From Escherichia coli (GTDB lineage Bacteria; Pseudomonadota; Gammaproteobacteria; Enterobacterales; Enterobacteriaceae): a stretch of DNA of 64,000 nt. The stretch is from assembly GCF_003334335.1 (NCBI RefSeq), contig NZ_QOWQ01000024.1; one strand, 5' to 3'. The position numbers and the translations under genes are program-made. The notes beneath the pieces are model-generated. The model was not told the origin of the DNA. It made no database searches and saw only the letters and a list, made by a program, of their open reading frames with translations. This document shows, in pieces, positions 57,104 to 57,262 of this stretch (position 1 is the stretch's first letter; every line of letters begins with the position of its first letter).

Positions 57104-57262
57104 GTGAAAGATATTTTATTTTCTTCCGGCGTTGGTTTTGGTATTGGTGCTTTGTTTACAATCGTGCGCTTGCCTATTCCTGTACCAAATGTATTACCGG
57201 GTATATTATCCATTGTGTTTATGTATGTCGGATATCTGGTGGTGAAATACTTTATGCCATGA
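57104..57262 (+). CDS. small hydrophobic protein (52 aa, GTG start), possibly the XapX/DUF1427 family
   Basis: VKDILFSSGVGFGIGALFTIVRLPIPVPNVLPGILSIVFMYVGYLVVKYFMP; AAGG SD-like motif 7 nt upstream; not in ORF track (below length cut-off). Confidence 0.5.
   Translation: MKDILFSSGVGFGIGALFTIVRLPIPVPNVLPGILSIVFMYVGYLVVKYFMP

Follow-up and report, generated by a model that had tools for sequence, protein, structure and literature searches.

Does the spacer between xapB and xapR in the xap locus of Escherichia coli hold a gene of its own, and if so, to which family does the product belong and what might it do beside a nucleoside transporter? The stretch of DNA analysed here (the window, 64,000 nucleotides) carries this locus at about 57 kb, in the order yfeN (- strand), xapA, xapB, spacer, xapR, RtT/tRNA cluster (- strand) and gltX. 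The first gene of the unit is xapA (54902..55735, + strand), encoding xanthosine phosphorylase, followed by xapB (55795..57051, + strand), which encodes the xanthosine/H+ symporter, an MFS transporter of the NHS family, and lies immediately 5' of the frame under study; xapR (57303..58187, + strand) encodes a LysR-type activator. Divergent from xapA, yfeN (53889..54653, - strand) encodes an outer-membrane nucleoside channel of the Tsx family and is syntenic in most loci. Between xapR and the tRNA cluster lies an RtT RNA element (Rfam RF00391; 58296-58421, - strand), which is annotated in K-12 and scores 47.3 bits (gathering score 45); in E. coli ApSLC23 no RtT feature is annotated, and the distance from xapR to tRNA-Lys is about 155 nt shorter.

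The reading frame and the selection acting on it

The xapB stop codon ends at 57051 and the xapR ATG stands at 57303, leaving a 251-nt spacer of which xapX (57104..57262, + strand; GTG start, TGA stop, 52 codons) takes up 159 nt (63%), oriented like xapA, xapB and xapR. A Shine-Dalgarno-like AAGG (57093..57096, + strand) precedes the GTG by 7 nt, and this GTG is the first possible start because an in-frame TAA stands at 57098-57100. The initial annotation, made from the letters of the window, had proposed exactly these coordinates, with the same 52-residue translation and the same AAGG, for a frame filling most of a gap of about 250 nt in xap orientation, and the measurements agree with it throughout. 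A GC-rich hairpin followed by TTTT (57060..57086, + strand), resembling a terminator or attenuator, separates the xapB stop from the Shine-Dalgarno-like element. On the xapR side, an in-frame ATG 15 nt 5' of the annotated start (57288-57302) gives rise to a 299-residue ORF in the mechanical list of frames; we favour the start at 57303, which is that of PGAP and has a GGAG at 57291-57294.

A short ORF alone proves nothing, since 57 ORFs of at least 30 residues occur within 6 kb of the window, and the region is AT-rich, so that a chance frame in the spacer had to be considered. To collect syntenic loci, we scanned one genome per species with a degenerate pattern. Of the ten loci obtained, eight belong to Enterobacterales (Escherichia sp., Pseudocitrobacter, Entomohabitans, Phytobacter, two Chimaeribacter, Citrobacter sp. 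On2M and Pragia), and each of these has the gene order xapA-xapB-ORF-xapR. Seven of the eight were then compared with the window and with a second E. coli lineage, giving a nine-locus set that covers seven genera. In every one of the nine, xapX has exactly 52 codons, lies directly 3' of xapB, begins with GTG or ATG and is preceded at the equivalent site by a purine-rich Shine-Dalgarno element (AAGG, AAAGG, AAGGAGG or GGAG). The xapX frame is also the only one that stays open in all nine.

The substitutions in these loci bear the mark of protein-coding constraint. Nei-Gojobori dN/dS values against the window range from 0 to 0.125 in the xapX frame, as compared with pN/pS values of 1.6 and 3.1 in the shifted frames, and the variable columns of the alignment are distributed 20/10/45 over the three codon positions. 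At short range, E. coli ApSLC23 is 93.4% identical to the window over a 501-nt region and carries seven substitutions in the ORF, all synonymous, and both strains share one protein accession; Escherichia sp. MOD1 differs by ten substitutions in the ORF, and again all ten are synonymous. Across the same loci, XapX is as conserved as XapR, or more so (69-100% versus 63-95% identity). The preservation of frame and length, the low dN/dS and the codon-position skew across nine loci make the ORF more than a product of chance. Conservation and Ka/Ks of the frame had been named at the outset as checks, together with ribosome profiling; the former bear the gene out, whereas the published E. coli ribosome-profiling studies of small proteins that were examined make no mention of the xapX locus, xap being uninduced in standard media.

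Family membership, annotation and predicted fold

The peptide matches the NCBIfam model TIGR03510 'XapX' (InterPro/PGAP name 'XapX domain-containing protein') with 64.2 bits (E 5.8e-18), well above the curated whole-protein cutoff of 27.8, the match running over residues 4-50 of the protein and positions 2-48 of the 49 in the profile. The architecture of this family, namely about 49 residues, two hydrophobic helices and a (K/R)-L-P-x-P-A/V-P connector, is found in E. coli XapX. Both the window and loci L001, L002 and L004-L011 have the order xapA-xapB-xapX-xapR, which moreover places the gene at the xapB-xapR position from which TIGR03510 takes its name, as had been suggested when the frame was first noticed. 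A chance frame is ruled out by the combination of frame-specific selection, synteny and this match to a curated HMM.

The other family label attached to the protein deserves separate consideration. RefSeq/PGAP lists xapX as "DUF1427 family protein" (WP_000651752.1), and a Pfam-A scan of E. coli XapX gives no hit, PF07235 DUF1427 included, even at E<=10. The same Pfam model is matched by 21 of 46 XapX homologs at E<=0.001 and by 37 of 46 at E<=0.1, and precomputed weak DUF1427 matches are present on some relatives. The DUF1427 label of the E. coli protein is hence transitive, running through its homologs and the PGAP product name; of the joint XapX/DUF1427 assignment first suggested, the XapX half stands and the DUF1427 half finds no direct match in Pfam. 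In a domain census of 2005, DUF1427 was said to be confined to plant-associated Proteobacteria (PMC554113), a restriction that no longer holds.

xapX is therefore not a new gene but an already annotated member of an already named family. Of 5426 complete E. coli genomes, 4085 match the 501-nt query spanning the xapB-xapR spacer and 4091 match the xapA-xapR block (54902-58187), which gives zero match in the others. Every one of the 29 sampled genomes with the full spacer has xapX annotated, as do the sampled whole-block rows, and at least 1000 contigs carry the exact protein sequence, named there "DUF1427 family protein" and "XapX domain". The gene was initially described as unlisted, which is true of the curated MG1655 record (NC_000913.3) but not of PGAP-annotated genomes. 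The curated K-12 MG1655 annotation thus has a gap at a conserved and strongly selected gene that PGAP annotates in thousands of other genomes, and deletion or engineering of the xapB-xapR spacer, or the use of xapR constructs, will disrupt xapX unknowingly. Among already annotated small proteins, Table S1 of Fesenko et al. carries the entry "xapX domain protein, TRANSMEMBRANE" (PMC11188072), and the accessible tables of this microproteome preprint contain no XapX expression entry. Our literature search returned for 'XapX' nothing beyond a mention in an annotation table for C. koseri and for 'DUF1427' only the 2005 domain census, and it yielded no paper on XapX function.

Hydropathy reveals two 18-residue hydrophobic segments, with Kyte-Doolittle values of 1.99 (residues 4-21) and 2.24 (residues 30-47), and the charged residues of the whole protein are limited to K2, D3, R22 and K48. 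In agreement with the two-helix membrane peptide first proposed, AlphaFold2 run on a 46-sequence family alignment predicts a helical hairpin (mean pLDDT 94.1) with helices at residues 2-20 and 31-50 joined by a 10-residue connector. The connector is the most conserved feature of the family, with the consensus (K/R/N)-L-P-(I/V)-P-A-P among 46 relatives and the proline-rich version R-L-P-I-P-V-P-N in E. coli; L23, P24, P26 and P28 hardly vary, and G43, in helix 2, is invariant. In helix 1, G11xxxG15 is conserved across the family. These glycines justify the term glycine-zipper-like as a description only, since the Pfam glycine-zipper model touches just one of 46 members, at E 0.049. Neither a PDB sequence-profile search nor a Foldseek search with the XapX model returned relatives. 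Taken jointly, that xapX is a real gene, that its product is a XapX (TIGR03510) member and that it adopts a helical-hairpin fold are points on which we are highly confident.

A short hydrophobic peptide of this kind might be a membrane-damaging toxin or a holin-like protein, and two observations point that way: a weak match to a holin family in Pfam for one of 46 members (E 3.1e-4) and the presence of one member on a phage-like contig. Against this, six family members, the phage-like-contig protein included, give no PHROG hits; xapX lies inside operons in sense orientation; and an Rfam search of the xapB-xapR spacer returned no family and no antisense or toxin-antitoxin RNA. For XapX, we thus find no toxin or holin family match, no antisense RNA partner and no phage lysis context. 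A chance frame or a peptide of the toxin or holin type is a pair of readings to which we give next to no credence.

Transcriptional setting and distribution among xap clusters

The hairpin between xapB and xapX (57060-57086) has a 9 bp stem, a 5 nt loop and a folding energy of -15.2 kcal/mol, with its TTTT at 57083-57086. Its pairing is kept through base changes (G.U to A-U, C-G to U.G) in other Escherichia lineages, and a hairpin occurs at this site in most genera, Entomohabitans having none. The hairpin and its T-run could serve as a terminator of most xapAB transcripts, which would count against the expression of xapX from that unit. A hairpin also stands directly 3' of xapB in Klebsiella and C. 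freundii, both of which lack xapX.

The distances on the two sides of xapX behave differently. From xapB to xapX they amount to 34-107 nt in every locus. The gap from xapX to xapR is shortest in Escherichia and Pseudocitrobacter, at 40 nt and free of hairpins; Phytobacter and Citrobacter sp. On2M have 51 nt there, Chimaeribacter and Entomohabitans 111-119 nt that include strong terminator-like hairpins, and Pragia 891 nt, which contain a deoC-like gene. The near-constant distance to xapB and the variable distance to xapR indicate that xapX travels with xapB and not with xapR. As a side observation, the frame interposed in Pragia fontium (L011, 6160-7050) is a 262-residue ORF resembling deoC (deoxyribose-phosphate aldolase) by eye, in the order xapA-xapB-xapX-deoC-xapR.

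From this arrangement we infer that xapX belongs to the xapAB unit as its distal cistron, placed behind a leaky terminator, and that transcription in E. coli extends from it into xapR, since 40 nt leave no space for a conventional promoter with its leader. A sigma-70 promoter scan of the region produced two weak candidates, at 56980-57009 and 57259-57287. The second was rejected as a xapR promoter, as it leaves no room for the xapR Shine-Dalgarno sequence and is not conserved in Pseudocitrobacter. Genomic SELEX has placed a binding peak of sigma-54 RNA polymerase in the xapB-xapR spacer (approximately 57052-57302; PMC8743547); the TGG-N9-TGC core motif of sigma-54 promoters is absent between 57000 and 57310, and a sigma-54 promoter in the spacer was dropped on that account.

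The same geometry could be read in another way, with xapX as a leader or upstream ORF whose translation itself couples to or tunes xapR, the peptide having no function. In E. coli, xapX indeed ends 40 nt before xapR across a hairpin-free gap, one too short to hold a conventional promoter and leader and whose sole promoter-like match would place the transcription start at or beyond the xapR Shine-Dalgarno sequence. Nevertheless, purifying selection acts strongly on the amino-acid sequence, the XapX family spans distant bacteria, other genera interpose terminator-like hairpins or the whole deoC-like gene before xapR, and Klebsiella, Citrobacter and Enterobacter express xapR without any xapX. We consider a functionless leader very improbable. 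The selection pattern and the family distribution together effectively exclude the chance, leader-peptide and toxin readings.

Within Enterobacterales, the xap-linked XapX subfamily was found only directly 3' of xapB. Conversely, XapB orthologs with 77-89% identity exist in many further genera, and clusters consisting of xapA-xapB-xapR without xapX occupy the same chromosomal position in Klebsiella huaxiensis, C. freundii-like and Enterobacter genomes (L029-L033, positions 5258-5357). Their xapB-xapR gaps measure 100, 97 and 67 nt, respectively, each bearing a hairpin, and in none of their frames is there a XapX-like sequence: the best profile match reaches E 1.3, and tblastn returns nothing relevant. 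XapX is thus not an obligate or core subunit of XapB. The pattern is that of a lineage-variable component of the cluster, which is strongly constrained where present and dispensable elsewhere, and which makes xapX presence or absence among closely related xap clusters a ready-made natural comparison. In strain RM14721 (L003), an IS1-associated deletion has removed part of yfeN, xapA, xapB, xapX and the 5' end of xapR, and the 'xapB' of P. mirabilis was rejected as uninformative, being a solitary paralog of 49% identity without xapA or xapR.

A modulatory or auxiliary role beside XapB is possible in the light of this distribution. By analogy with other small membrane proteins, we put forward as a tentative proposal that XapX is a non-essential auxiliary membrane factor tuning XapB-dependent nucleoside uptake or catabolism. 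XapX would insert into the inner membrane as a helical hairpin, probably acting as a dimer or small oligomer of such hairpins; it would be expressed distally from the xanthosine/XapR-inducible xapA-xapB unit, downstream of the leaky terminator-like hairpin; and in E. coli the xapA-xapB-xapX transcript would continue into xapR. The auxiliary role is weakened by the xap clusters of three genera that lack xapX and by the relatives without an adjacent transporter gene described below.

The wider XapX family and known small membrane proteins

When 1.84 billion representative proteins were searched exhaustively with a profile, 75 XapX relatives emerged at E<=0.001, mostly of 48-93 residues and each made of a single domain; all ten distant members tested score above the TIGR03510 cutoff. 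The contexts of singleton genes are diverse. One overlaps the end of an FMN-reductase gene; another closes a sugar-type catabolic operon, an MFS gene lying some 1.8 kb off on the other strand; a third lies beside a CsoR-like repressor gene and rlmH; a fourth lies between argS and a HARE-HTH gene, with pyrG next; and a fifth (L019, 3065-3220) sits on a short, phage-like metagenomic contig with RecA-like and MazG-like genes and many small unannotated ones. None of the contexts examined outside Enterobacterales includes an adjacent MFS or nucleoside transporter gene. Consistent co-occurrence with a partner transporter gene is accordingly not found, as XapB orthologs occur free of xapX and distant members occur free of an adjacent transporter.

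One subfamily is organised in tandem. In all five of its loci, the first-type gene has a homologous partner immediately downstream (L012, 5745-6132; L013, 49-447; L020, 1408-1824; L022, 1570-1985; L023, 242-645), and in three of the five the pair adjoins FmdA_AmdA (formamidase/acetamidase) genes, where it may form an amidase-linked membrane heterodimer. Homologous tandem pairs argue for a working unit of at least two hairpins, and they suggest that the family acts as a dimeric membrane unit. The first gene of the pair encodes K/R-rich termini and a connector without K/R, its K+R bias lying between +2 and +10 (at least +5 in four of five loci); the second encodes an acidic, K/R-free N-terminus and a conserved connector Arg, with a bias of 0 to -1. 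Singletons lie mostly at 0 to +2 (range -1 to +3), E. coli XapX at +1. The charge pattern of the pairs, few as the charges are, would fit opposite orientation or dual topology. An extension of this idea would make XapX a minimal two-helix dual-topology family in which singletons, E. coli XapX among them, enter the membrane either way round to give antiparallel dimers and pairs form heterodimers of fixed orientation, which together would build a four-helix conduit for small solutes or ions. We regard this as rather improbable; if it were true, the cargo might be, for example, amides or their products beside formamidases and a product of nucleoside catabolism in the xap cluster.

Independently of topology, the family could work autonomously of XapB, with paired hairpins forming a channel of four or more helices for ions or small solutes, or a generic module recruited into many catabolic operons. 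The diverse contexts devoid of an adjacent nucleoside or MFS transporter gene, the tandem pairs beside amidase genes in three of five loci, the xap clusters of three genera without xapX and the small-residue motifs conserved in both helices all speak in its favour. On the other hand, each hairpin offers two short helices with almost no pore-lining polar residues, the searches of PDB profiles and Foldseek found no structural analogue, and the restriction of the xap-linked Enterobacterales subfamily, as far as found, to the site directly 3' of xapB also counts against autonomy. An autonomous function is, like the auxiliary role, no better than a tentative reading, and we hold the two to be about as likely. 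The E. coli xap locus, being inducible and genetically tractable, is suited to the study of the XapX family.

Several known systems invite comparison. Small inner-membrane proteins that modulate transporters include AcrZ with AcrB, KdpF with KdpABC, MgtS with MgtA, and YjcH/DUF485 with ActP. XapX resembles them in size class, in hydrophobicity and in having a transporter gene as neighbour in the same operon. It has no sequence relationship to them, xapX is missing beside many xapB orthologs and, unlike modulators of the AcrZ/KdpF type, its relatives show no general linkage to transporters.

A second parallel concerns small membrane proteins of dual topology, or of paired opposite topology, such as EmrE/SMR and Fluc/CrcB, which Rapp and co-workers are said to have described in 2006. 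The XapX family shares with them a near-neutral K+R bias in its singletons and homologous tandem pairs with contrasting charges. It differs in having two helices per protomer instead of four, and the bias of the second partner reaches just 0 to -1, so that opposite orientation is here a supposition from sequence. As for the families under whose names the protein is already filed, what E. coli XapX has in common with PF07235 DUF1427 is the PGAP product name and the matches of its homologs, the E. coli protein itself being unmatched. With TIGR03510 it agrees both in HMM membership and in locus, and nothing differs.
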